DNA from: a virus
Taxonomy: Duplodnaviria > Caudoviricetes
IMG/VR virus record: IMGVR_UViG_3300014204_000139
Span: 1 to 64,000 of that record
Strand: one strand, 5' to 3'
DNA length: 64,000 nucleotides
The notes below the pieces were generated by a model that worked only from the letters and a program-made list of their open reading frames with translations, made no database searches and was not told the origin of the DNA. Of this stretch, positions 28,721 to 52,197 are shown one piece after another; within the stretch, counting starts at the first letter, position 1, and each line of letters starts with the position of its first letter. Both the position numbers and the translations under genes were made by a program.

Positions 28721-28957
28721 TTATGCAATAATTTCTGCAAACTTATCTCGAACTCTCTTTGCATACTCCATTGCTTCTGTGTTACTTTTATTTTCAGATT
28801 CCAGTTCAGCAATTTTTTTCAGGTTTTCTGAAGTACCTGCCTCAATAACTGCAATATTTTCATTAAATGAGTCCACAATACCAGAAACCTTTGACACCAA
28901 ACCATTAATCTTATTTTTAGCACTCTCAACTGAATTCCCGGTGAAGTTAATATTCAT
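28721..28957 (-). CDS. Small coiled-coil protein
   Basis: ATGA overlap with the rtcB stop. Confidence 0.65.
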   Translation of the reverse strand: MNINFTGNSVESAKNKINGLVSKVSGIVDSFNENIAVIEAGTSENLKKIAELESENKSNTEAMEYAKRVRDKFAEIIA

Positions 28958-31305
28958 CTTTCTTCTTTCTCCTTATTATTTTTCTTTTTCCAAGGTTTTT
29001 CGTCTGATACATCTTTCATGTTATGAATTGGAATAATCCTATCCAGAATTTTTGCTGTTGGTTCTATAGCTTTTTCAATTATATTTGAATCTTTATATGC
29101 ATCAGGAGATTCATCAATTGTACCTCTACCAACTGACGTTGAATAAATTCCTTCCATATCTTTTTCAAATTTTTGTAGATCTAATTCCTCCTTAGCTTTT
29201 GATCTGGAATAAACTCTTCCTGCACCATGTGGTGCTGAGAAATTCCATTCTGAATTTGACTTTCCTTCACAAATTAAAATTCCGTCTCTCATATTAAAGG
29301 GAATTATCATTTTTTCCCCAATATAAGATCTTATTGCACCTTTTCTAATTATGTAATCTGTTGAATCTATATAATTATGAACAGTTTCAATTGTTTCTTT
29401 TACTTTAAAGTACTTTTCATATACAGTTTCTCTTAAAACAGAGATAATAGTTTGCATTATAATACGTCTGTTAGTAGAAGCATATTCTTGAGCAAAATAC
29501 ATATCTGAAAGATAACCATCCAAATCTTTACCTTTAAGATAATCCAACTCGCTTTTTTTAGTTGATCCTATTTTATTTTTTGCTTTTACTATTTCTTCTT
29601 GCCACTCTTTTTTAGGAAATTTTTCTTTAATTTCTAAAATTATTTTATTTATATCCGGGAGCGGTCTTTCATAGGCTATATTCTGCCAATATTCACAAAT
29701 CTTTTTACCTAAATTTCTTGATCCTGAGTGAATAGTAACCCAAATATTACCTGTATTTTGTGATTCTCCTAATTCTATGAAATGATTCATTTTTATCCCA
29801 TAGCCTTTTATTTTTTGTTCACATTACGGCTATAGATGGACTATCGCATCACCAAAATTATGGTGTTCTCTCGCTTAGTCTCTCACGGTACAATATTATA
29901 AAAATATTGCTTCCGCCCTGTCGTCCATGTCTGGACTTCCAAGTCAATCAGAGAGAATTTCAGATTAAGGTCTGGAGGCAACCAGTTTACCACCACCTAA
30001 ACTACCTAAAGAATAAACTGCATAATCAAAATCAATTCCTACTCTTTTACACAAAACTTTCACATCTGATGATAATCTTATTTTCCCTTTTTCATTAACA
30101 TTTATCCCAAAAGGGATTTTTTCTCTTATACCTTCATCTAAGCTAACATGATTAATAGTTAATTTTCCAACATTAAAAGATAGCATTCCACAATTATGAA
30201 CGAAAACTCCTGCTGACAAAGCAAAGTTGTGATATTTTTCTACTTGTAAACAATAAACATCTTCTTTATAATCTAATTTTTTAATAGATAAAACTTTATG
30301 ATTATTTATTATTTTATTACATGCCTTTTTATGTCTACCAAAACTACCTTTTCCCTTTATTCTTCTTCCACATTCACATTCAAAGATTTCTTCATTATTA
30401 AGATATTTAGATCCTCTTTTACCATTGTCTTTAAAATCTTCTTTCCATTTTCCTGAATTCATATAATCAGAAATATTTTTCTTTGCTACTTCTTGTTTTT
30501 TTTCTAAAAATTTTGGATTAAAATATTCACCTTTTAGATCCATTTTTAATTTCTTTTTTTCTTTAAAATCTTCTGTTGTAAAATAATTTCTTTGAGTAGC
30601 AGTAATTGAACAATGTTTATTTTTTGTTAAATATTCTATATTTTCTGGTGTATTATTATACCAACAATCATCTTTGTGATGAGTATGATAATCATATGGT
30701 CTCTTGCCATATAAAAATTCTCCAATAACATGATGTGTAGCTATTGGTTTTTGTTTTCCAGTTGAAACATGTTCATATCCATCTCTTGATTCATATGTTC
30801 TATATAATGGCATTAAACTATCTTTAATTTTTAAATCTTTAGCTTCTTTATAATTTCCATCAATTAACATAAATAATTGGTCAGGTGTGCATCTGATTAC
30901 TTCTCCACCACTAATTATTATTTCATATAATTCTGAATTTTCTTTAGTTTTAATTGCAGTTGCTAAACCAGGAACTATTTTTAAATTTTCATCTAATGAG
31001 TAGACATAGAATATTTTTTCAACTAAGTTAATTAAACTCTCTTGAAAACCATTCAATAGCGGAATTTTTGTAGATCCAACGAAACATCCGATATCTACCC
31101 CAACAACGTTGGGAACTAATTTATTTCCAACTTCCATTGTAAATCCAATTACAGATCCTTTACCAGAATGACAATCTGGCATAATAGATACAGGATTTGT
31201 AAAAGCTTCATGATTGATCATTTGAATTATTTGAGACATACAATTTTCATCAACTTGATCAATCATTATTTTTGCTTTTGTATATTTACCAGAATATTCA
31301 ATCAT
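28954..31305 (-). CDS. rtcB: RtcB RNA ligase; exons 31305-29989 and 29787-28954; contains an intein; mature protein about 418 aa
   Basis: MPDCHSG, VGVDIG|CGM, SLGSLGGG|NHFIE, HSGSR, HNY, SAPHGAGR, DESPDAYK motifs. Confidence 0.93.
29788..29988 (-). mobile_element. Group I intron, 201 nt, no homing endonuclease ORF
   Basis: Removal restores GGG-NHFIE in frame. The 5' exon ends in U and can pair with GCCUCC (P1, U-G wobble). GAGACUAA and GAUAGUCC (P7) are present, and the intron ends in G. Confidence 0.92.
30193..31086 (-). mobile_element. Intein, 298 aa, with an HNH-type endonuclease region
   Basis: Starts CFVGST, ends HNFALSAGVFVHN before Cys+1; internal HHKDDCWYNNTPENI...H. Confidence 0.93.
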
Positions 31306-44089: not shown

Positions 44090-44110
44090 ATAATTTATAC
44101 AAAAAAATAA

Positions 44111-44154
44111 TAAAAATGGAGTTAAGCTATAACTAAAGCTTAACTCCATTTTTA
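44111..44154. terminator. Bidirectional terminator
   Basis: TAAAAATGGAGTTAAGCT/AGCTTAACTCCATTTTTA. Confidence 0.85.
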
Positions 44155-44163
44155 CCGTAATAT

Positions 44164-44403
44164 TTATTTTCCGGGAGGTATCTCAACACCTATCCCATTA
44201 TATATTTTATCTATTGCATCAATTTTAAAATAAGCTTCTTTATATTCTTTTGCATCATTTTTTGCTGAAGTTAGTTTTTCAATTAGAAGATTAACTTGGC
44301 CTTCTGTTAATTCACATAATGCAGTACCAATTAGTAATATAATCTTTCCTTTAGGAGAAATCTTTACCCTAACATTTCTAATAGCGTCTGATTCAGTTCC
44401 CAT
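44164..44403 (-). CDS. Hypothetical protein
   Basis: Last ORF of the operon. Confidence 0.6.
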   Translation of the reverse strand: MGTESDAIRNVRVKISPKGKIILLIGTALCELTEGQVNLLIEKLTSAKNDAKEYKEAYFKIDAIDKIYNGIGVEIPPGK

Positions 44404-44409
44404 AAAAGT

Positions 44410-44823
44410 TTATCCATCTCTCCAAGCTTCTTCTATAAATGCTAATTCGTTCTCTTTTACAATAATTCCATAACTTGCAAGTTCTGAAATAATTTCTTTC
44501 TTAAAATCTCCCAGTGTTTGATTATCTTGCATATTTACAGGTGATGCAGCAATCATAATATAATCAGAACCATAACAACCAAAAGAAAAATTAAGAATCG
44601 TACTATAAAAATTATCTGAAATATTATATCTTAGATTTTTTTTGTCTTCTATAAATTTTTCATAATTAATAGATACATCATAATATTTACTTGTTTTGTA
44701 GTTTTCAAAACATCTCTTTAAAAATAATTCATTTTTAAAAATATTACTATTTTCTATTTCAACTCCCCATCCAATAAAAGATGTTGTACTTGAGTTTGTA
44801 ACAAAATCTAACTTTCTTCTCAT
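44410..44823 (-). CDS. TNSS-motif protein 1
   Basis: MRRKLDFVTNSSTTSFI. Confidence 0.8.
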   Translation of the reverse strand: MRRKLDFVTNSSTTSFIGWGVEIENSNIFKNELFLKRCFENYKTSKYYDVSINYEKFIEDKKNLRYNISDNFYSTILNFSFGCYGSDYIMIAASPVNMQDNQTLGDFKKEIISELASYGIIVKENELAFIEEAWRDG

Positions 44824-44844
44824 AAAAATGTATAAAATCTCCTC

Positions 44845-45360
44845 TTAGTGCGTATCAACCACTTCAATTTTTACTTTATTGATGTCAAACTTTTTTAAAT
44901 TTGTTTCTCTATAAATTAAGTATAGCATCCAATCTGGAACATCTTGAAAAAAATCATTATACATACTTGTATCATGAGTAACAGTAAAGAAATTTTCAAA
45001 CTTTATATCAAAATTCATTTCTCCTAATAACGTTCTTTTTATTTGGTCATCTGTAGCTAATAAACTAGCTTTTTCATCAAAATGTTTATATATCAAATCA
45101 TAAAATAATTCGTCTCTCTTATCCGCTTCTCCTTTCTCAATTTTTTCTTCTAATTCTTTTTTGCTTTTTATGTGTTTTTTAGTAGCATCCTTATATTTTT
45201 CAACTTTTTTATCTAAACTTTCAGAATTAATTTCTATATAATAATCTATATATTTATTCCACAATTTAATAAATTCATTTAAAGTTTTTGCTTCACAATT
45301 TACATATAAAATAAATGAGGCACTTGATGAATTAGTTATAAAATCTGTTTTTACTTTCAT
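44845..45360 (-). CDS. TNSS-motif protein 2 (start MKVK)
   Basis: MKVKTDFITNSSSASFI. Confidence 0.8.
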   Translation of the reverse strand: MKVKTDFITNSSSASFILYVNCEAKTLNEFIKLWNKYIDYYIEINSESLDKKVEKYKDATKKHIKSKKELEEKIEKGEADKRDELFYDLIYKHFDEKASLLATDDQIKRTLLGEMNFDIKFENFFTVTHDTSMYNDFFQDVPDWMLYLIYRETNLKKFDINKVKIEVVDTH

Positions 45361-45361
45361 A

Positions 45362-45895
45362 TTAATGTTCACTATTTTCTAAATTTGGAAGTTGATTAAA
45401 AGTGCCACCGTGTTCCATGTCGCTAAAAAACCCCCCACCTTCATCTGAATAACAAAAAGTATATATAAAACCTTTTTTATTTTCTAAAATAAAATCTTTT
45501 AAATCATCATCTGAGACTCTTAAAGTTGTATAATTATCAGAAAAATGTTTTATTATTTTCATTACAATATAATCAACTTGTGCAACTGGAATTATTAGAC
45601 TAGGATAAAAATTTGCACTTTTTTCTTTTATTTCTTCAATAATAGAATTAACAAAATCAGGATCAAATCTATCTAATAAAATTGATTCAACTAAATCCAT
45701 AAAATTAACATCAGCAAAAGTTTTACTAAGATCTATTTCTATTGGAATTTGTTCCATTGAATCTCTAAAAACCTGTTTTGCTTTTTCTAAAGCCATATAA
45801 GGACTTACATCATCTATAGACTCAATCTTTTTTGGAAATAAAACTATGAAGCTTGTTGAACTTGAATTAGTTACGAAATCATACTTTATTTTCAT
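45362..45895 (-). CDS. TNSS-motif protein 3
   Basis: MKIKYDFVTNSSSTSFI. Confidence 0.8.
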   Translation of the reverse strand: MKIKYDFVTNSSSTSFIVLFPKKIESIDDVSPYMALEKAKQVFRDSMEQIPIEIDLSKTFADVNFMDLVESILLDRFDPDFVNSIIEEIKEKSANFYPSLIIPVAQVDYIVMKIIKHFSDNYTTLRVSDDDLKDFILENKKGFIYTFCYSDEGGGFFSDMEHGGTFNQLPNLENSEH

Positions 45896-46242
45896 TAATA
45901 ACCGCCATCACCAATTATAACTTCAAAATCTTTTCCAAAATTTAATTTATTAATTCCATTATTTACCATAAAAATCTCAAGAGGATCATCTGATTCTGAA
46001 GAAGCCTCAATTAATAAAATTTCTCCGTTACTATTTATAACATTCTTCATTTTTTCAAAATCTGTGTAATCTTTAAAATTTTGTTTTAATTGATCAATAT
46101 CTCTAATTTTATCACTAACATATCTATCTAGATCAATCTCAATCTCAATTTTTATTTTTCCTAATTTTTCATTTCTATTTGTATGACCTATAATAAAACA
46201 AGCGCTGCTTGAATTGGTTACAAAATCTGTTTTTCTTTTCAA
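45895..46242 (-). CDS. TNSS-motif protein 4 (TTG start at 46242)
   Basis: MKRKTDFVTNSSSACFI; GGAG RBS and TTGA overlap with the upstream stop. Confidence 0.8.
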   Translation of the reverse strand: MKRKTDFVTNSSSACFIIGHTNRNEKLGKIKIEIEIDLDRYVSDKIRDIDQLKQNFKDYTDFEKMKNVINSNGEILLIEASSESDDPLEIFMVNNGINKLNFGKDFEVIIGDGGY

Positions 46243-46514
46243 TGATCGCTCCACTTAATCTTTTTTTCATCAACGTGAATTAATTCTAAAAATTCACGCA
46301 TATTAAAATTATCTAAAAATGTAGATAATTTTAATGCTTCTCCCAAATCTTCAATATACCATTTGTCTTCTTCTGCATATTGACCCATTCCCATTCTTGT
46401 AGCATAATATAAGTGATTTTCAATTTTTTTAATTTGATTTGGACTTAAATATTCTTTTTGAATTATAAATGAGCAACTACTTGAATTTGTTACAAAATCA
46501 TTCTTGAATTTCAT
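46239..46514 (-). CDS. TNSS-motif protein 5
   Basis: MKFKNDFVTNSSSCSFI. Confidence 0.8.
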   Translation of the reverse strand: MKFKNDFVTNSSSCSFIIQKEYLSPNQIKKIENHLYYATRMGMGQYAEEDKWYIEDLGEALKLSTFLDNFNMREFLELIHVDEKKIKWSDH

Positions 46515-47139
46515 TGAACTTCTTATCCTTATTACAAACTATTACGATATTTTTTTCAGATTTGCACTGTTTATCAAATTGACCATTACCATTAGATAAC
46601 TTACAAAGATCTAAACACCATAATTCATATGGACTTAACTTATCTACAATAAAAGATGGATATTTTTCTGATTTATTTCCTTCACAACAGGGCATCATAA
46701 TTAAATAATCTGCCCCTGATTTTTTATAAATATCAATAATTGCAATAGCTAGTTCATCACAAGGATGAACTGATACAATTATAGAAGGATTATTTTCGTT
46801 TATTGTTTTAATTAAAATATCTTTTTCTTTTATTATATCTAACTTTATTCTACTAAAACCTCTGATTTTAGAAAATCCTTGTCTATCTCTATCTTTATTA
46901 TCAATTGCAACTACATTTTTGACTTTAAATAAATGTGCTATTAAAGAAGAAGTAACACAATTACCTGAACACAAATCAAAAATATTATATTTATTAGGAT
47001 TTGTAACTAAAATCTTTTTAATCCTTTTAATTATAGACATAGATTCAGTAATTTCTTTTTCAGGTTCAAGAAATGGATATACTGAATTTAAAACATCTCC
47101 TGCACATTTTAGTTCTAGAAAATGATTAATAGCACTCAT
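46498..47139 (-). CDS. Class I SAM-dependent methyltransferase (Methyltransf_32/Trm13-like motifs)
   Basis: IFDLCSGN, VVAID, VSVHPC, MMPCC, SEKN. Confidence 0.75.
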   Translation of the reverse strand: MSAINHFLELKCAGDVLNSVYPFLEPEKEITESMSIIKRIKKILVTNPNKYNIFDLCSGNCVTSSLIAHLFKVKNVVAIDNKDRDRQGFSKIRGFSRIKLDIIKEKDILIKTINENNPSIIVSVHPCDELAIAIIDIYKKSGADYLIMMPCCEGNKSEKYPSFIVDKLSPYELWCLDLCKLSNGNGQFDKQCKSEKNIVIVCNKDKKFNEIQE

Positions 47140-47156
47140 TTAATCTTCTTTCTTTA

Positions 47157-48176
47157 TTACAATTCATATGGACAAGACATTGGATTATTGTTTAGTTTAT
47201 TTCTAAACATTTGAAAAGATGAACCATCATCCCAAATTTTTTGAATTGGTGTTTCTTTTGTAATTTTCAAACCATATTTGTATTTATCTCCAAAAGAGCA
47301 TGGCATAAACATCATATCTGGAGAAATATAACAACTCATTCTTGAACCTTCACATGTATCAACACAAGTTTTTTCATTTTCGGTCAAATCTCTTACTTGA
47401 CTAACCTTGTTAATCATACATGAATCACAACCAATTTTAAATTTTGACTTTGGATCAAGAAGGTGATTTGCAAACTCTTTTATTTGATCATTATTTAAAC
47501 ATAGATATTTTTTATCTGCACCATTTCCTTGTGGTTTAAATAAAAGAAATACTACAGCATTTAATTTATCAATAGGAAATTTTTCATTCCATATATCTTC
47601 ACCTTTTAAGATTTTAATTGAGTTAAAAAAAGTTTCATTTGAAACTACAAAATGAATATTAGTTTTAATTTCTTCTTTAATGAATTTATTTAATGCATTA
47701 TAAGTAAAATCTTTATCATAATTTGAAACTGCAACAGCGCCACATAGTTTACTAATTTCAACTTCTTCATCTGTTAAACCATTACCAGATGTAGTATAAT
47801 TTGGAATTACATTATTCTTTCTGCAATATTCAAGAATTTCTTTAAAATTTTCATGTTTATTTGGGTCACCCTTTCCACCTAAAGCGACCTGATTAATATG
47901 AGATTTACATTGATCGATAATTGATTTAAAATCTTCTAATTTCATATTTGGTTCATTGACATCGCCCTGATAGCAAATTTTACAATTATTTAAGCAATGG
48001 CCCATAATACCAATATCAATCATACTAGGAGAATTCAGAACAAATGGATCTGGATTTCCATGAATACCAGACAGAACTTCAAAACCATTAAAACCATTAA
48101 ACAAAATAATATACTTCTCAGTCTCAATCTTCTTAGTAAAAATCATTATAATACCTTTCAGAAATATTTTATTCAT
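47157..48176 (-). CDS. Radical SAM enzyme with a SPASM/twitch-like C-terminus
   Basis: CLNNCKIC, ALGGKGDP, YTTSG, CEGSRMSCYISPD...PCSF...CP. Confidence 0.9.
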   Translation of the reverse strand: MNKIFLKGIIMIFTKKIETEKYIILFNGFNGFEVLSGIHGNPDPFVLNSPSMIDIGIMGHCLNNCKICYQGDVNEPNMKLEDFKSIIDQCKSHINQVALGGKGDPNKHENFKEILEYCRKNNVIPNYTTSGNGLTDEEVEISKLCGAVAVSNYDKDFTYNALNKFIKEEIKTNIHFVVSNETFFNSIKILKGEDIWNEKFPIDKLNAVVFLLFKPQGNGADKKYLCLNNDQIKEFANHLLDPKSKFKIGCDSCMINKVSQVRDLTENEKTCVDTCEGSRMSCYISPDMMFMPCSFGDKYKYGLKITKETPIQKIWDDGSSFQMFRNKLNNNPMSCPYEL

Positions 48177-48657
48177 TCCCAGTAACTAAAACTACTAATT
48201 TATCATTATCAATTTTAATTCTTTCATATCTCATTTTACATTCAGATAAATTTCCATTATGATCTGAAAATCCACAGGTACTTATAGATTTAAAACCCTT
48301 TCTCTCTTTATATTTCAAAAGTTCAATTAGTTTTTCATCTTTCTCAATTTCATCTTTATAATATTCTAAATATATCGATGATTTATCTCTTTCATCTTTA
48401 ATCAATCTTTTATAAGTAATTATATTTTTTTCTATTTCTTTAATTTTATCGTTAATATCTATTACTTTAACATAATCTTTTTCATTTATAATTTTAATAA
48501 CCTCATATACATTTACATTATAAATTTCATCAATAAATTCAAAAGATCTCCAGTTATCTTTCATAACTGAATAAAGATCATTTAATTCTCTTCCTCTAAA
48601 AACAAAAATATATGAAGTTGAACTTGAGTTAGTTACAAAATCTCTTTTTATTAACAT
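48169..48657 (-). CDS. TNSS-motif protein 6
   Basis: MLIKRDFVTNSSSTSYI. Confidence 0.8.
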   Translation of the reverse strand: MLIKRDFVTNSSSTSYIFVFRGRELNDLYSVMKDNWRSFEFIDEIYNVNVYEVIKIINEKDYVKVIDINDKIKEIEKNIITYKRLIKDERDKSSIYLEYYKDEIEKDEKLIELLKYKERKGFKSISTCGFSDHNGNLSECKMRYERIKIDNDKLVVLVTGNE

Positions 48658-49018
48658 TAATCATTCTAGCCTTTATAAGCGTGTAAGATGAAGATTCTTT
48701 TTTACCAAAAATTTTTTCTAACCAGTTTAAAATTCCAGTTGTATTACATGTATCACAACTAAGATTCATTTTAGAATTAGGCTTAGTAAAACAATCAGGA
48801 CATAAAAAATTTGGTGGTTTAATTATAACTACAAATACTTCTTTACATATTGTACATCTAAAAATATATTTTGATTGATTAATTTTTCTTAAAAGTTTTA
48901 AATAATATCTTGTATAAGATTCACTAGAAAAATTTGGAAATGGACCATGATTATTAATACATTTTAAACCTTCCGAACTAATGAATTTTTTAGTATTACT
49001 ATTATATATTGTTATCAT
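48629..49018 (-). CDS. Zinc-finger protein
   Basis: CTIC, CPDC, CDTC. Confidence 0.55.
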   Translation of the reverse strand: MITIYNSNTKKFISSEGLKCINNHGPFPNFSSESYTRYYLKLLRKINQSKYIFRCTICKEVFVVIIKPPNFLCPDCFTKPNSKMNLSCDTCNTTGILNWLEKIFGKKESSSYTLIKARMINVNKKRFCN

Positions 49019-49147: not shown

Positions 49148-50221
49148 TTAATCCAATTGACATTTTGTCTCCTTAGATAAAAGAAATCTTTTTGTAATTT
49201 TTTGACAAAGTTTATCAATTGCAACTTTATTTGCTGTATGTGGAAGAACAGACTTCTCATATAGTTCATTAAATTTTAAATCAAATGATTCTAGAAGATT
49301 TGAAATTTCTTCATATTTATAAGTGCCATTTTTAATTTCAAGTAAGAATTTTGCATCTGGTCTTGGAAATGTTATTTTTCCTGTTGTTAATAATTCTTCG
49401 CCTTCAGTAATTAATCTTACTAAATGTGAACCATGTTTTGTATCAAATCCATATTTTTCTTCTAGTTTTGCTCTTTCTGGATTTCTATTCTTTTTCCAAT
49501 TTTCATACTGATTAAAATATCTTTCTGCCATTGCATAAGAATTTTCTTTTTGAAGAATTTCTATAAATTGATCAGAAATAGGTAAAATTGCTTGAGTTGC
49601 TTCTTTGTCTAAATTTGGAAATTGTTTGCAAAGAGCTTTAAAATCATAAGTCTCTTGCATTTGTTCTAGTTGTTCTTTTAGAGGATGAAACTCTTTAACA
49701 TTCTCTAACTTCATTGCAACTAATACATTTAAAGCACCAATTTGATCTTTTGTTAAATCAGATTTAGATTCAGATAAACCATAATCAGATCTTTTTGGTT
49801 TTTTAGTTGGAGGATTTAGTAACCAAGATCTATGTAGTTTAATTCTATTAAATTGAGAATGAGCATAACCTGAAAATGTAAATTTAGACTTTTTAGAAAC
49901 AAATAAGTCTCTATTTTTTGAAATTTGTAACCAGTCTACTGAGTTCTGTAGCCATTTATCTTTTGGAACAAATAAAAGTTCAATAATATTTGGGTTATTT
50001 TCCATTGCTAACTGCATAAATTTTCTAATTTCAAAATATGTTATATCATTTTTCTTATCTTCAAATTGCTCTACTCTATTTAAGAACCCATAAAAATATG
50101 TTTCATCTGCAATAAAAACACCTCGTTCATCAATATCTGATTGTGGTGTATTTGTGCCATATAGATGTGATCCAGCTAAACATCTAAAAATTAATTTAAA
50201 GGAGTTTGGAAGTTGAATCAA
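49148..50221 (-). CDS. Pol-beta superfamily nucleotidyltransferase (RlaP/YcgL/T4 NrdC.11-like)
   Basis: GSHLYGTNTPQSDIDERGVF, NPNIIELL, KHGSHLVRL. Confidence 0.88.
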   Translation of the reverse strand: MIQLPNSFKLIFRCLAGSHLYGTNTPQSDIDERGVFIADETYFYGFLNRVEQFEDKKNDITYFEIRKFMQLAMENNPNIIELLFVPKDKWLQNSVDWLQISKNRDLFVSKKSKFTFSGYAHSQFNRIKLHRSWLLNPPTKKPKRSDYGLSESKSDLTKDQIGALNVLVAMKLENVKEFHPLKEQLEQMQETYDFKALCKQFPNLDKEATQAILPISDQFIEILQKENSYAMAERYFNQYENWKKNRNPERAKLEEKYGFDTKHGSHLVRLITEGEELLTTGKITFPRPDAKFLLEIKNGTYKYEEISNLLESFDLKFNELYEKSVLPHTANKVAIDKLCQKITKRFLLSKETKCQLD

Positions 50222-50250
50222 TTCTTATTACCTTTCTTTTTATTAAAATA

Positions 50251-50288
50251 ATATCCGCATTAGACAAACTAATATCTAATGCGGATAT
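50251..50288 (-). terminator. Hairpin after the TerD-like gene
   Basis: ATATCCGCATTAGA/TCTAATGCGGATAT. Confidence 0.7.
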
Positions 50289-50295
50289 CTTAAAC

Positions 50296-52197
50296 TTAGC
50301 TAATCAGATTTATTATTGTATCTTTCTCTAAACTTTCAGGTGAAAGATCAATATCACAATCTTCTTTTGAGTCAACCAATATTGCTCCAGATTTCTCTAA
50401 AACCTCATTTAATGTTATACTACCAAAATTAAAGTCAAAAAGAAACTGTCTAATTTTATTGGTTGATTTTGTTGCTCTTGATGTTATTGAATCCCCAAAT
50501 GAGGTTTCAACATAATAGAATTTACACTCTTTCTCGTTAGTAACCATCAACCCAATAATTTTCTGACGAGTTGAAATTTTAGCACTGTCGGACGAGATAA
50601 CGTTATTTGGACTAATCATATAATTTCTGGAAAGATTTTCTCTTACATCTCTTCCAACAATTATTTTGAATGGAACCTCAACCTTTTCGTTAAAATTATA
50701 ATAGTTGACAAACATAATTGAACATATGGAACTATTTTTATTTACATGAAATAATTCTGTAGCACCATTTGGAGGAGTTGCAGAGGTCATATCTCCAGAA
50801 AATAAAACAGTTAAATTCTGATTCCTGTAACGTCCATCCCATCCTATTTTGTCTCCAAGATGATTAATCAAAGAGAGATCTAGATCAATTCTATTTTCTC
50901 CAACATCATTCCAATGAATACCAAAAATCATATTATTTGGAACACTAATACAGGTTCCAGATGGAAAATTTCCAACAAATTGTTTTTCTGTTGCAGGTAA
51001 TGAATATGTAATATTTTTTGGAATATAAATATTCTTTCCTGCAACCTTTTGTCGGAGATTTTCACTTATAGATTTTAGAATAATGTTCAATGCATCTTGA
51101 TGTTTTTTAGAACTTAATTCATTAAAATCTGTAACAAAATTTTTTCCATTTCTAATTCTATACAATATATAACTTGGTTCAGATTCTCTAAACTTTACTG
51201 AATATACAAGTCTTATTTTTCTAAAGACATTTACTTTTTTTAATTCTTTTTCAAGAATTTCTAAATCTAGAGTATCATTTTTAATTTTAGATGTTACACT
51301 GTTTAGAAAATCTTCTGGCATCGGTTTATGAAAACGTACTGCAAGTCTTCTGATTCTATTAATTATGTTATTCATTTCTTCACTTCTTTTAAATGCTAGA
51401 AATAAAGGTTTAAATCTGTAGAAAATCTCGCCAAGATGTTCAATACCAAATTCTTTATCATATTTTTTAAATAATTTGTAAACAATATCTTTGGTGATTG
51501 TCATTGATACTTTTATTTCTGAAATTGTATTTGGATCTTTAATCAACAACGTTCTCCCAATAGATTTAAATATTACAAATCTTAGGAATTCAATAGGATT
51601 CTTTGGAATTTTATTTAGACTATCATATAGAACAACTCTAACTTCTTTATTTTTAATTTGAACCAACTCATCTTCAGAAAAATTAAAAAGTTGTTTAATA
51701 AGATTAACCATGCCAATTTTTGTATCATCTTTTAAAGCGATTCCAGACTTTAGAACTGCAAAAACTTTTTCTTTTAATTCTTCTATAGTGTATCCCTTAA
51801 TAACTGTCAAGGGAATTTTATCTAAATTGATTCTTGGAAGTTCTAATTTTTCACATGGAATATAAACTGAATTATTATCATATACACCAAGAGCCTCAAA
51901 TCCATATGTAGTTATGTAATGCATTATTTGCTCAATTACTAAAACTTCAATATTTGTTTCTTTTATTTTTCTCCATGATTTATGAAAGGTGTTGTTTATC
52001 TTTCTTGAATTAAATCCAATTGTTTCTTCAATCATGGGAATTATTTTAATTAAAAAATCTGTATCATAGTTATAAATTACTTCTGGTGCATAAATAAATC
52101 CACTTTTAATTGTTTCTTTGAGAAGTTTTTTATTTGCTTCTTTTTTTCCATTTTTTGTAATTGGTAATGCTTTGAATAAACTAATAAATGTCTGCAT
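50296..52197 (-). CDS. 633-aa protein with a helical N-terminal region and a C-terminal TerD-like domain
   Basis: FGIHW...RIDLDLS...GW...FSGDMTSA...GATE TerD-like motifs; NNTFHKSW and EQIMHYITTYG in the N-terminal part. Confidence 0.75.
   Translation of the reverse strand: MQTFISLFKALPITKNGKKEANKKLLKETIKSGFIYAPEVIYNYDTDFLIKIIPMIEETIGFNSRKINNTFHKSWRKIKETNIEVLVIEQIMHYITTYGFEALGVYDNNSVYIPCEKLELPRINLDKIPLTVIKGYTIEELKEKVFAVLKSGIALKDDTKIGMVNLIKQLFNFSEDELVQIKNKEVRVVLYDSLNKIPKNPIEFLRFVIFKSIGRTLLIKDPNTISEIKVSMTITKDIVYKLFKKYDKEFGIEHLGEIFYRFKPLFLAFKRSEEMNNIINRIRRLAVRFHKPMPEDFLNSVTSKIKNDTLDLEILEKELKKVNVFRKIRLVYSVKFRESEPSYILYRIRNGKNFVTDFNELSSKKHQDALNIILKSISENLRQKVAGKNIYIPKNITYSLPATEKQFVGNFPSGTCISVPNNMIFGIHWNDVGENRIDLDLSLINHLGDKIGWDGRYRNQNLTVLFSGDMTSATPPNGATELFHVNKNSSICSIMFVNYYNFNEKVEVPFKIIVGRDVRENLSRNYMISPNNVISSDSAKISTRQKIIGLMVTNEKECKFYYVETSFGDSITSRATKSTNKIRQFLFDFNFGSITLNEVLEKSGAILVDSKEDCDIDLSPESLEKDTIINLIS

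Follow-up and report, generated by a model that had tools for sequence, protein, structure and literature searches.

The locus described here raises the question of why six small phage proteins with different bodies begin with the same short sequence and are encoded together with a radical SAM (rSAM) enzyme. The window, the whole 64,000-nucleotide stretch of giant-phage DNA that we analyzed, contains a minus-strand unit (44410–48657) in which six genes, designated W1 to W6, are translationally coupled to an rSAM/twitch enzyme. Strong terminator-like hairpins at 50250–50289 and 44109–44156 flank the unit; the latter has a 20-bp stem and lies 3′ of the last gene. The features are as follows.

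49148..50221, minus strand: RlaP-type nucleotidyltransferase, 357 aa (PF10127, 6.4e-24); first gene after the hairpin at 50250–50289
48629..49018, minus strand: Cys-rich zinc-ribbon-like protein, 129 aa (weak Pfam zinc-ribbon matches only); overlaps the W6 start by 29 nt
48169..48657, minus strand: W6 tag protein, 162 aa, starting MLIKRDFVTNSSSTSY; stop overlaps the rSAM start by 8 nt; orthologs P0039, P0043 and P0049
47157..48176, minus strand: radical SAM enzyme "type A", 339 aa (phrog_7293, 4.6e-26)
46498..47139, minus strand: Methyltransf_32-type methyltransferase, 213 aa (PF13679, 1.8e-10)
46239..46514, minus strand: W5 tag protein, 91 aa, the smallest; C-terminus ...WSDH; orthologs P0101–P0103
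45895..46242, minus strand: W4 tag protein, 115 aa; C-terminus ...GDGGY; orthologs P0107 and P0120
45362..45895, minus strand: W3 tag protein, 177 aa (phrog_7397); C-terminus ...SEH
44845..45360, minus strand: W2 tag protein, 171 aa; C-terminus ...DTH
44410..44823, minus strand: W1 tag protein, 137 aa; C-terminus ...IEEAWRDG
44164..44403, minus strand: final gene of the operon, 79 aa, without a tag or a family; homolog in L015 (58% identity)

The six open reading frames were confirmed, as were the two starts that the initial annotation had corrected: an ATG at 45360 for W2 and a TTG at 46242 for W4, the latter overlapping the TGA of the upstream gene. The tight gene coupling claimed there is also established, in that neighbouring tag genes either overlap or are spaced 1–21 nt apart, with overlaps of 8 nt with the rSAM gene and 17 nt with the methyltransferase gene. 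The tag proteins are acidic (pI 4.5–6.0) and, as previously stated, three of them end in His (W2, ...DTH; W3, ...SEH; W5, ...SDH). The methyltransferase had been counted as part of the system, a view that we abandoned; it had no homolog in 119 related phage loci or in the nearest relative, G002, and is probably incidental. Similarly, the 129-aa Cys-rich protein is an operon member here but is not kept in relatives and is absent from G002. The RlaP-type nucleotidyltransferase gene is retained beside the type A enzyme gene in several related phages, with homologs adjoining the rSAM gene in L007, L027, L072, L080, L082, L103 and also G002.

The shared N-terminal tag

All six proteins begin with M-x-x-K-x-D-F-[VI]-T-N-S-S in exact register, as the initial annotation had claimed, and the shared stretch extends over 13–17 amino acids. 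Alignment of all six shows M1, K4, D6, F7, T9, N10, S11, S12 and I17 to be invariant, and the same holds for a second, weak common element close to the C-terminal strand, an aromatic-x-Asp (D151 of W3). When the full 64 kb was scanned in six frames, D-[FY..]-[VI]-[TS]-N-S-S occurred only at the six tag starts, each time five codons past the start codon. The tag contains neither a conserved Cys nor the sulfatase C/S-x-P/A-x-R motif. It is not repeated DNA: over codons 1–17 the six genes are 61–76% identical in nucleotide sequence, and only 97 of 173 same-residue tag positions use an identical codon. Because the Ser codons alternate between the TCN and AGY classes, the tag is under selection at the protein level.

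Proteins with the tag make up a very large family without annotation, 6462 clusters at 50% identity, across thousands of which eight polar residues are near-100% invariant. The match begins at residue 1 in 142 of the best 150 of the 6462 representatives. The start codon lies exactly five codons before the Asp in 307 of 313 unique tag ORFs, and the same spacing was found in 48 of the 54 tag ORFs outside the selection of the search pattern. The tag behaves as a module rather than as part of a domain. When two subfamily profiles were compared with hhalign, residues 1–19 aligned and nothing beyond them did. The AF2 models of W1 and W3 are confident overall (pLDDT 88 and 89, respectively), with values below 50 for residues 1–9 of W1 and 1–10 of W3, establishing the predicted disorder of the tag. 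In both models the fold begins at S11–S13 and residues 13–20 form β-strand 1; neither model matched a solved fold (best Z 4.1 and 4.6).

Outside the tag, individual subfamilies carry conserved elements of their own. Of the subfamilies, that of W3 occurs alone with the type A enzyme most frequently. Its members share a conserved element at the C-terminus (Y-S-D-E-x-G ... E-H-G-G-T-F ... H-H) and include gp118 of the cultured Klebsiella phage Matisse, a W3 ortholog that aligns over the full length (BLASTP 2e-8); Matisse has a variant of the module. The C-terminus of W1 is kept in about 34 orthologs. In bacteria tag proteins reach about 510 aa, compared with 91–177 aa in the window.

The enzymes and their co-occurrence with the tag

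The type A enzyme contains the CX3CX2C motif (C61, C65 and C68) and one conserved set of auxiliary-cluster Cys residues (C253, C275, C293 and C335, plus C145). Cellular orthologs have the full SPASM motif, whereas the type A enzyme stops short of its final four Cys, and we therefore consider it twitch-like. Its Pfam matches (PF04055, 5.4e-5; PF13186, 2.7e-3) are both under Pfam's cut-offs; an HMM built from the cellular orthologs scored it at 2.4e-77. The NCBIfam similarities, all far below curated cut-offs, are exclusively to SPASM peptide or protein maturases or cofactor enzymes (MftC, WgkB, KxxxW cyclase, PqqE, NirJ and GeoRSP), and a RiPP-recognition element (RRE) was not identified in the enzyme. 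A second clade, type B (347 aa; PF04055, 2e-12), likewise follows tag genes directly in these jumbo phages and is coupled to them. Judged by sequence, type A and type B are unrelated rSAM clades (BLASTP E = 0.04), each located beside tag genes.

The co-occurrence of tag and enzyme is established across phages, bacteria and archaea. We retrieved 60 prokaryotic loci with the tag DNA pattern alone; in 48 of them an orthologous rSAM/SPASM gene lay no more than 121 bp from the tag, usually overlapping it, and 3 others ended before a downstream gene could show. Five genomes that seemed to lack the enzyme at first look all contained it (E <= 2e-85). Among 401 sampled Bacteroidota genomes, the tag was present in 2, as was the enzyme, adjacent to the tag in both, and neither was present in the other 399. 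In phages, for which the records used were incomplete, an rSAM gene was found within 62 of 117 tag loci. An additional 27 of the 43 phage records without one at the tag locus had rSAM genes elsewhere in the record, nearly all of type A or type B and most again flanked by tag genes; the records without any rSAM gene are fragments, at most 53% complete. In the relative G002, whose rSAM enzyme is 79% identical, 10 tag genes occupy 6 places and only 4 of them are beside an enzyme. Many phage tag genes are thus distant from every rSAM gene, so that in phages the two are often linked at the level of the genome rather than the operon. Occurrence of the motif independently of the enzyme had been named beforehand as evidence against a functional tie, and we did not find it in the phage and prokaryotic genomes examined. 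These results support the core of the original idea, that one SPASM/twitch-type rSAM enzyme is functionally tied to a common N-terminal tag.

The system had been described as a phage system. The pair does occur in phages but is not confined to them, as its orthologs are found within Avs2-like STAND operons across many bacterial phyla. The cellular unit is a four-gene operon encoding an Avs2-like STAND NTPase, a small protein that we call "up", a tag protein and the rSAM enzyme. The upstream STAND proteins match PADLOC Avs2 models (2e-24 and 8.5e-20), and the cellular tag proteins are single-copy, in both chromosomal and plasmid operons.

A proposed role for the tag

We favour the reading in which the enzyme modifies the tag, and hold it with moderate confidence. 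The covalent installation of a cofactor or crosslink, as proposed in the initial annotation, is a hypothesis, and the enzyme–substrate relationship, the site, the chemistry and the biological role are inferred. According to this model, the 13–17 N-terminal residues (M-K-[IV]-K-x-D-F-[VI]-T-N-S-S-S-x-S-[FY]) would constitute a free, flexible recognition-and-reaction tag for a dedicated rSAM/SPASM-twitch maturase, and in the window phage a single enzyme would serve six tagged proteins with different bodies. The enzyme would bind the tag and the 5′-deoxyadenosyl radical would then bring about a covalent change within it. As nothing else is common to the bodies, the likeliest candidates for the reactive residues are the invariant K2, K4, D6, F7, T9, N10 and S11–S13. 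A side-chain crosslink or cyclisation would be the most likely chemistry, followed by cleavage or oxidation at N10–S11. As an undescribed enzyme–tag pair inside STAND-type antiviral operons of many bacteria, the two genes probably represent a system for chemically marking whole proteins at the N-terminus. Because the pair is a module of such Avs2-like operons, the phage versions most likely serve as weapons or counter-weapons in phage–host or phage–phage conflict.

Instead of being modified, the tag could be a non-covalent docking strand through which the tagged proteins, as adaptors, specificity subunits or regulators, attach to a hub, either the rSAM enzyme or, for example, the STAND NTPase. 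The target of the enzyme would then lie elsewhere, in nucleotides, nucleic acids or the other small protein encoded in the cellular operon. This is possible, though less probable. Partner-binding strands are often disordered, as the tag is predicted to be; one tag on many different bodies would suit a set of adaptors; and Avap2, the small accessory of KpAvs2, binds physically to the STAND protein (PMC11564622). The conserved "up" protein could also be the true substrate; however, its family is absent from all phage loci that retain the enzyme and tags. Moreover, the near invariance of eight polar residues exceeds the usual need of docking, and the enzyme clades resemble peptide and protein maturases.

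It is unlikely that the conserved N-terminus and the aromatic-x-Asp form a strand-loop active or metal site of one very divergent small domain, with the rSAM gene as a mere pathway neighbour. The Asp near the last strand does recur in subfamilies as YSDE, WRDG, FSDH and LxSD, the residues after the tag form β-strand 1 in both models, and the His/Glu-rich C-terminus of the W3 type looks metal-binding. The invariant Asp element, a point against the modification model, leaves room for a common structural or catalytic core that includes the segment right after the tag. Nevertheless, profile–profile comparison detected no homology past residue 19, residues 1–10, the most conserved part, are unpacked in both confident models, and the absence of a solved-fold match likewise argues against this explanation. 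In addition, strict N-terminal register would be unexpected for an internal catalytic loop.

Autoprocessing at the Asn-Ser site, the alternative offered in the initial annotation, we regard as improbable. Autocatalytic N10–S11 cleavage, by an N-to-O acyl shift or Asn cyclisation, would free a decapeptide, so that the remaining protein would begin with Ser or a pyruvoyl group, as happens in Ntn hydrolases, pyruvoyl enzymes and intein C-terminal cleavage. It fits the order/disorder boundary, which two independent models place exactly at N10|S11, the invariance of N10, S11 and S12, and the resemblance of D-F-V-T-N|S-S-S to intein C-termini (the RtcB intein of the window ends G-V-F-V-H-N|C). However, ten residues are too few for a Hint fold, Thr replaces the penultimate His, the RtcB intein has the only Hint domain in the whole 95-kb record, and the obligate pairing with rSAM enzymes would be left unexplained.

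The T4 internal proteins are divergent small acidic proteins with only an N-terminal peptide in common. A similar sorting signal, sending diverse cargo into the virion or ejectosome as the T4 capsid-targeting sequence does, would match the layout of divergent small acidic tag proteins in variable arrays beside the tail sheath gene, but it is very improbable given that the same tag occurs on single-copy proteins in STAND operons of bacteria without a virion, is conserved between phage groups that are unrelated, as scaffold-specific targeting signals are not, and has no L/I-x-E-type protease site.

Related systems

Among published systems, KpAvs2 with Avap1 and Avap2 comes closest. Defence against some phages requires Avap1, the rSAM accessory of the KpAvs2 operon, and the Avap1 model does not fit an NTP site (PMC11564622). 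The gene order matches that around the cellular orthologs described here: first an Avs2-type STAND NTPase bearing a nuclease-type N-terminal effector, then one or more small accessory proteins and an rSAM enzyme (PMC11564622). In contrast, the present cellular operons encode two small proteins, the tag protein being joined by "up", and their STAND proteins are shorter (about 710–1070 aa); HMMER did not detect in these operons PF19902 (DUF6375), which defines Avap2 (PMC11564622). The window phage differs further in having six tag proteins and neither a STAND nor an "up" gene; Avap1 and Avap2 were compared by description only.

In HXS antiphage defence, the effector HxsA is matured by the rSAM enzymes HxsB and HxsC (PMC13128918). 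The likeness is one of principle, in that a whole protein is matured in a phage-defence setting by a process that includes N-terminal processing. HXS differs in its His-Xaa-Ser repeats as the recognition element, its periplasmic effector and its two rSAM enzymes plus HxsD (PMC13128918); the HxsB and HxsC models gave weak partial matches to related enzymes and none to the window enzyme.

Kaur, Burroughs, Iyer and Aravind (2020) predicted peptide modification for modules of NTP-dependent conflict systems. In the part of that report considered here, an rSAM-SPASM enzyme is found beside small proteins that vary except for one conserved terminal piece, with a link to STAND/AP-ATPase effectors, but that piece is C-terminal (FxSxx type) and belongs to a vWA-MoxR ternary system with a metallopeptidase; the same part does not mention an N-terminal tag of the present kind (PMC7159879).

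Thioether crosslinking of CrpA by CrpC provides a precedent for rSAM maturation of whole proteins (PMC13692751), and in both CrpC/CrpA and anSME/AtsB a SPASM rSAM enzyme modifies full-size proteins encoded alongside. CrpA is Cys-rich and sulfatases carry C/S-x-P/A-x-R, whereas the tag has neither feature. RiPP maturases (StrB/SuiB-streptide KxxxW, WgkB, MftC, PqqE and PapB) are the best, though weak, NCBIfam similarities of these enzymes. Features in common are the rSAM core with its auxiliary Fe-S domain, variable substrates that carry a conserved recognition sequence at the N-terminus, several paralogous substrates beside one enzyme, and a substrate gene that precedes the enzyme gene. The putative substrates here differ in being folded proteins with confident models, and no leader protease or exporter is present. 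At one locus, L107, three PapB-like SPASM maturases are located near a tag ORF.

The shared N-terminal tag and its operon

All six tag proteins encoded by the window operon (W1 to W6) begin with M-x-x-K-x-D-F-[VI]-T-N-S-S in exact register, as the initial annotation had reported. Its two corrected starts also stand: W2 opens with an ATG at position 45360, and W4 with a TTG (46242) that overlaps the upstream TGA. The operon is flanked by strong terminator-like hairpins at both ends and is convergent with the tail sheath gene.

Features of the operon, in order of transcription, and of two further minus-strand genes
50250-50289, terminator-like hairpin
49148-50221, minus strand, RlaP-type (RNA-repair-pathway) nucleotidyltransferase, a recurrent neighbour of the type A radical SAM gene (the window gene and its orthologs) in L007, L027, L072, L080, L082 and L103, which are loci of related phages, and in G002, the closest phage relative
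Next gene, minus strand, Cys-rich 129-aa protein
48169-48657, minus strand, tag protein W6
47157-48176, minus strand, radical SAM enzyme
Next gene, minus strand, Methyltransf_32 methyltransferase
46239-46514, minus strand, tag protein W5
45895-46242, minus strand, tag protein W4
45362-45895, minus strand, tag protein W3
44845-45360, minus strand, tag protein W2
44410-44823, minus strand, tag protein W1
Next gene, minus strand, 79-aa protein
44109-44156, terminator-like hairpin
50296-52197, minus strand, 633-aa ORF without a Pfam family
28954-31305, minus strand, RtcB RNA ligase gene with an HNH-containing intein at 29965-31305 (splice junctions ...GVDIG/C and ...GVFVHN/C)

The virus record is 95.6 kb long with about 26% G+C and an estimated completeness of 28%; it reads as a jumbo-phage fragment of which the window is the first 64 kb. 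The RlaP-type nucleotidyltransferase and RtcB suggest that RNA repair is a theme of this phage. A separate ORF (28954-29790), beyond a 175-nt gap, encodes profile positions 154-425 of RtcB, its C-terminal two thirds, and thus the gene may be split or interrupted a second time.

No further copy of the motif was found in a six-frame translation of the 64-kb window, and neither motif copies nor tag genes were found in the rest of the record. Tag DNA is just 61-76% identical across the six genes and the Ser codons alternate between TCN and AGY, indicating that selection at the protein level, and not a recent duplication or gene conversion, keeps the tag. For each of the window paralogs there are separate orthologs elsewhere, and each subfamily has a conserved C-terminus of its own (...IEEAWRDG in W1; ...EHGGTF...HH in W3). 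When the W3 and W1 subfamily profiles were compared, the alignment (98.6% probability) was confined to residues 1-19. The tag is a module.

Conservation was assessed in 313 unique ORFs from phages and cells. K2 (95%), K4 (97%), F7 (98%), T9 (97%), S13 (95%) and F/Y16 (98%) were nearly invariant; D6, N10, S11 and S12 were present in 100%, but these residues belonged to the search expression. A start codon (ATG, TTG or GTG) lay exactly five codons before the Asp in 307 of the 313 ORFs, including 48 of the 54 that had not been selected by DNA pattern. A 40-position tag profile matched at least 6462 representative proteins (clusters at 50% identity; E ≤ 0.001) among 1.84 billion, and in 142 of the best 150 of these 6462 the match started at residue 1. 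The shared tag is real and far beyond chance. Models for tag proteins were lacking in Pfam, NCBIfam and PADLOC, phrog_7397 being the only model to touch the tag. A PDB sequence search with the tag proteins gave nothing, an ESM Atlas search gave only unnamed clusters, and literature searches on the motif strings returned nothing relevant. We found no description of either the tag family or the enzyme family in Pfam, NCBIfam or the literature.

The radical SAM enzyme and its linkage to the tag

Members of the radical SAM superfamily (PF04055) have a partial TIM barrel and a CX3CX2C motif that holds the SAM-cleaving [4Fe-4S] cluster. In the window enzyme this motif is formed by C61, C65 and C68, which follow an N-terminal extension of 55 residues and do not vary among the 39 aligned orthologs. 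Its PF04055 score of 23.9 bits falls under the cut-off of 29.5, although cellular orthologs do pass Pfam, and an HMM of the cellular orthologs matched it at 2.4e-77. SPASM domains (PF13186/TIGR04085) contain seven to eight Cys residues, including a C-terminal CX2CX5CX3C, and hold two auxiliary clusters. Here C253, C275, C293 and C335 are kept and, together with C145, are invariant in the aligned orthologs, but the protein ends right after C335 and scores 18.4 bits with PF13186, under the cut-off of 21.5. Four further C-terminal Cys residues are found in 15 of 15 cellular orthologs versus none of 24 phage enzymes. Because all 24 of the aligned phage enzymes stop after C335 and have none of these four residues, the phage form is, on its cysteine pattern, twitch-like with one auxiliary cluster, and the cellular form has a full SPASM domain. 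Similarities in NCBIfam were weak and were solely to peptide, protein or cofactor maturases (MftC, WgkB, the KxxxW cyclase, PqqE, NirJ, GeoRSP and the tungsten-cofactor oxidoreductase maturase). The enzyme family comprises at least 2755 clusters at 90% identity (E ≤ 1e-30).

Scanning IMG/VR with the tag DNA pattern gave at least 119 phage stretches. A type A homolog, about 50% identical to the window enzyme, was present in at least 48 of the tag loci, mostly at the corresponding site next to the tail sheath gene. At least 16 loci carried type B, a separate radical SAM clade (347 aa; PF04055, 2e-12; BLASTP against type A, E = 0.04) coupled directly to a tag gene, and among the 119 stretches listed one contained three PapB-like SPASM maturases. 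For 43 records whose tag locus had no enzyme, we found one elsewhere in 27, nearly all of type A or type B and most of them again flanked by more tag genes; the records without any radical SAM enzyme were fragments. In G002, the closest relative among the matches listed (79% identity between the radical SAM enzymes), the locus has three tag genes and no orthologs of W4, W5 or W6, and the whole genome holds ten tag genes distributed over six places, with a 346-aa radical SAM frame beside one. Thus, turnover of the arrays is quick, and in phages a tag gene is often distant from the enzyme. Counted by operon, tag and enzyme are often apart in phages; counted by genome, they are not.

The initial annotation had also noted the methyltransferase in the cluster. 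A part for it in the system was not borne out, as no homolog was found in any related locus among the 119 phage stretches listed or in G002, and we treat the gene as incidental.

Type B had no match in cultured phages or in the 95-kb record of the window phage. That record does hold a second radical SAM gene outside the window (G000:C1:82873-83196; 275-aa open frame; PF04055, 8e-12), which by BLAST is not type B. In one type B context (L013:508-5284) two further genes come after those of the tag protein and the enzyme, one for a WYL_2 protein and one for a protein of 872 aa that matches Prok-E2_D weakly; this block adjoins SbcCD genes, themselves flanked by further tag genes.

A cellular set of 60 loci was obtained with the tag DNA pattern from prokaryote contigs, one genome per species, and spans Bacteroidota, Clostridia, Desulfobacterota, Nitrospirota, Omnitrophota, Campylobacterota, Spirochaetia, Anaerolineae and archaeal MAGs, in which the multi-copy contigs may be viral. 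In 48 of the 60 loci a type A ortholog was within 121 bp of the tag gene, mostly overlapping it. Five genomes that at first seemed to have no enzyme all contained one, including those with tag proteins of 505-513 aa. Moreover, among 401 sampled Bacteroidota genomes the tag and the enzyme occurred in the same two, adjacent in both, and neither was present in the other 399. The initial annotation had reasoned that a motif occurring independently of the enzyme, with no modification seen, would be just a structural strand of a common domain; by the 48 loci, the five genomes and the 401-genome sample, the motif is not independent of the enzyme. From gene neighbourhood and co-occurrence, the enzyme-tag link is strongly supported.

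The tag is also found on large proteins outside the STAND operons described below. In Clostridia-type MAGs (L163:3200-4717, L186:2752-4293 and L198:5669-7204) the 505-513-aa proteins begin MKIKVDFVTNSSSE and have a type A gene directly upstream, and in another locus (L187) a 367-aa tag protein has an SCP2/alkyl-sulfatase C-terminal domain.

Records of 168 cultured phages contain a divergent form of the enzyme, with 27-28% identity across more than 90% of the protein; most are T4-like phages of Klebsiella, Enterobacter, Cronobacter and Citrobacter. In Klebsiella phage Matisse there was no tag gene within 4 kb of the enzyme gene, and tblastn searches of cultured phages with W3 and with the first 40 residues of W6 gave nothing useful. 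The tag profile alone detected two tag genes about 20 kb from the enzyme gene.

Tag genes of Klebsiella phage Matisse, found with the tag profile
L223:503-973, gp113
L223:4358-4873, gp118

Both products begin M-K-I-R-S-G-F-V-S-N-S-S-S-S-S-F, and gp118 aligns with W3 over its full length, including the Y-S-D-E...E-H-G...H-H end (E = 2e-8). This variant, MKIRSGFVSNSSSSSF, has Gly for Asp at position 6 and Ser for Thr at position 9. Since the enzyme branch that it accompanies is the most divergent one, tag and enzyme may co-vary.

Possible functions of the tag

AlphaFold2 models of W1 and W3 were confident (pLDDT 88.3 and 89.1, respectively), except that residues 1-9 of W1 and 1-10 of W3 were at pLDDT < 50, with the fold opening as a β-strand at S11-S13. 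Foldseek and VIA gave no convincing resemblance of either model to a solved fold (for W1 the top Z was 4.1, with an rmsd of 4.5 across 86 residues; for W3 it was 4.6, with an rmsd of 4.5 across 92 residues), and BFVD matches were weak and to uncharacterised viral proteins.

The reading with the best support, which we consider somewhat probable, is that the tag and enzyme form an enzyme-substrate pair, in which the radical SAM enzyme would recognise the free, flexible tag and alter it covalently, a single enzyme serving six different proteins in the window phage. The reaction site would be expected within the tag because the bodies have no detectable common part. Our first guess would be a side-chain crosslink, given which residues are invariant (Lys, Asp, Phe, Thr, Asn and Ser) and the resemblance to enzymes that cross-link Lys to aromatic residues; our second would be enzyme-dependent processing between N10 and S11.

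The tag could instead be a strand that docks without covalent change, which we think unlikely. A predicted complex of the window enzyme, its clusters and SAM with W3 scored 0.13 against a mark of 0.32, which speaks neither for nor against binding. That the tag is part of a divergent catalytic core is quite improbable: the first 9 or 10 residues are modelled at low confidence, and the W3 and W1 profiles do not align beyond residue 19.

A self-processing Asn-Ser site is very improbable. The C-terminal junction of an intein consists of a Hint fold (blocks A, B and F) before a terminal His-Asn, followed by Ser, Thr or Cys. The tag does place Ser after Asn, but only 10 residues precede this junction, the penultimate residue is Thr, and the single Hint domain of the record is that of the RtcB intein. 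A split intein with a 10-residue C-fragment was rejected, as there is no partner Hint fragment and the radical SAM linkage would be left unexplained. A virion-sorting signal, for which the tail sheath neighbourhood in phages might be cited and which would have to account for the cellular loci, is scarcely credible.

Returning to the enzyme-substrate pair, it would be of an already known kind, a radical SAM maturase with a tagged substrate; what would be new are candidate substrates that are whole proteins with an N-terminal tag, common to immune operons and phages. As in RiPP systems, a conserved recognition sequence lies on variable candidate substrates encoded beside the enzyme. These candidates are, however, proteins of 91-177 aa that are predicted to be folded (pLDDT 88-89) rather than short leader-core precursors. 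RiPP clusters may also encode a leader peptidase or an exporter, and an RRE (PqqD-like) domain; a family search of the window operon found no peptidase or transporter family. Unlike the substrates of the anSME/AtsB-sulfatase pair, with their C/S-x-P/A-x-R motif, no Ser of the tag logo is followed by Pro/Ala-x-Arg. The HXS system differs in having His-Xaa-Ser repeats and paired HxsB and HxsC; the six window proteins have no HxS repeats, and the operon has one enzyme only and no HxsB or HxsC match. Precedents for radical SAM maturation of a whole protein are CrpC/CrpA (PMC13692751) and, in antiphage defence, HxsA with HxsB and HxsC (PMC13128918). If the enzyme does modify the tag, whole proteins would be subject to a post-translational modification that is both new and very widespread, and the short, portable tag might serve as a tool for enzyme-directed protein modification.

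Cellular operons and a possible wider role

In cells the pair forms the end of a conserved four-gene operon. Its first gene encodes a 710-1070-aa protein and its second a helical protein of roughly 130 aa; the tag gene, whose product has some 135 aa and a Trp at its end, comes third, and the gene of the radical SAM/SPASM enzyme last. The 42 upstream large proteins constitute one family and match the PADLOC Avs2 models, and genes for Avs2-type STAND NTPases adjoin those of the cellular enzymes; there is no STAND gene in the window operon. The N-terminal effector domains are swapped among operons, being SMEK/REase, PNP_UDP_1 or a trypsin-like protease with a separate Avs1a-like MBL protein. Judged from gene content, the cellular context is immune-like.

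The only related system that we found in print is the KpAvs2 operon, in which defence against some phages requires Avap1, a radical SAM protein, and the receptor is bound by Avap2, a small protein, neither having been assigned a function there (PMC11564622); our comparison is with this description. Avap2 was called DUF6375-like by HHpred in that work, whereas HMMER found no DUF6375 (PF19902) in five operon-bearing genomes or in 401 Desulfobacterota genomes. A blastn search of E. coli genomes with the Shewanella cassette also gave nothing. For STAND-linked conflict systems, Kaur et al. 2020 describe radical SAM-SPASM peptide-processing modules whose motif is C-terminal (PMC7159879), in contrast to the N-terminal tag here.

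A broader proposal, which we make tentatively and with some doubt, is that tag and enzyme constitute a general radical protein-marking system common to immunity and counter-immunity. The Avs2-type STAND receptors of bacteria would have the marked tag protein as a component with a regulatory or sensor role, which would explain an Avap1-type accessory enzyme. Jumbo phages, and T4-like phages of Klebsiella, would carry an enzyme of their own together with fast-turning-over tagged arrays, whose products might mimic or inhibit that component, serve as its decoys, or be effectors dependent on the same mark. If true, this would give a concrete role to the radical SAM accessory genes of bacterial NLR-like receptors of the Avs2 type, left open in PMC11564622, and the multiple copies of the module in phages would suggest immune mimicry or evasion.

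Tractable material includes phage Matisse and about 168 related cultured phages. Cultured carriers of the cellular operon include Tissierella praeacuta DSM 18095, Agrobacterium tumefaciens Ach5 (plasmid pAt), a Shewanella isolate and a Chryseobacterium isolate. The Chryseobacterium operon (L220/L221) is on an ICE-like block with PRTRC, Prok_Ub and Prok-E2 genes, and that of Tissierella (L214/L215) adjoins a KAP NTPase, a reverse transcriptase and IS66; both are in mobile or defence-island settings.
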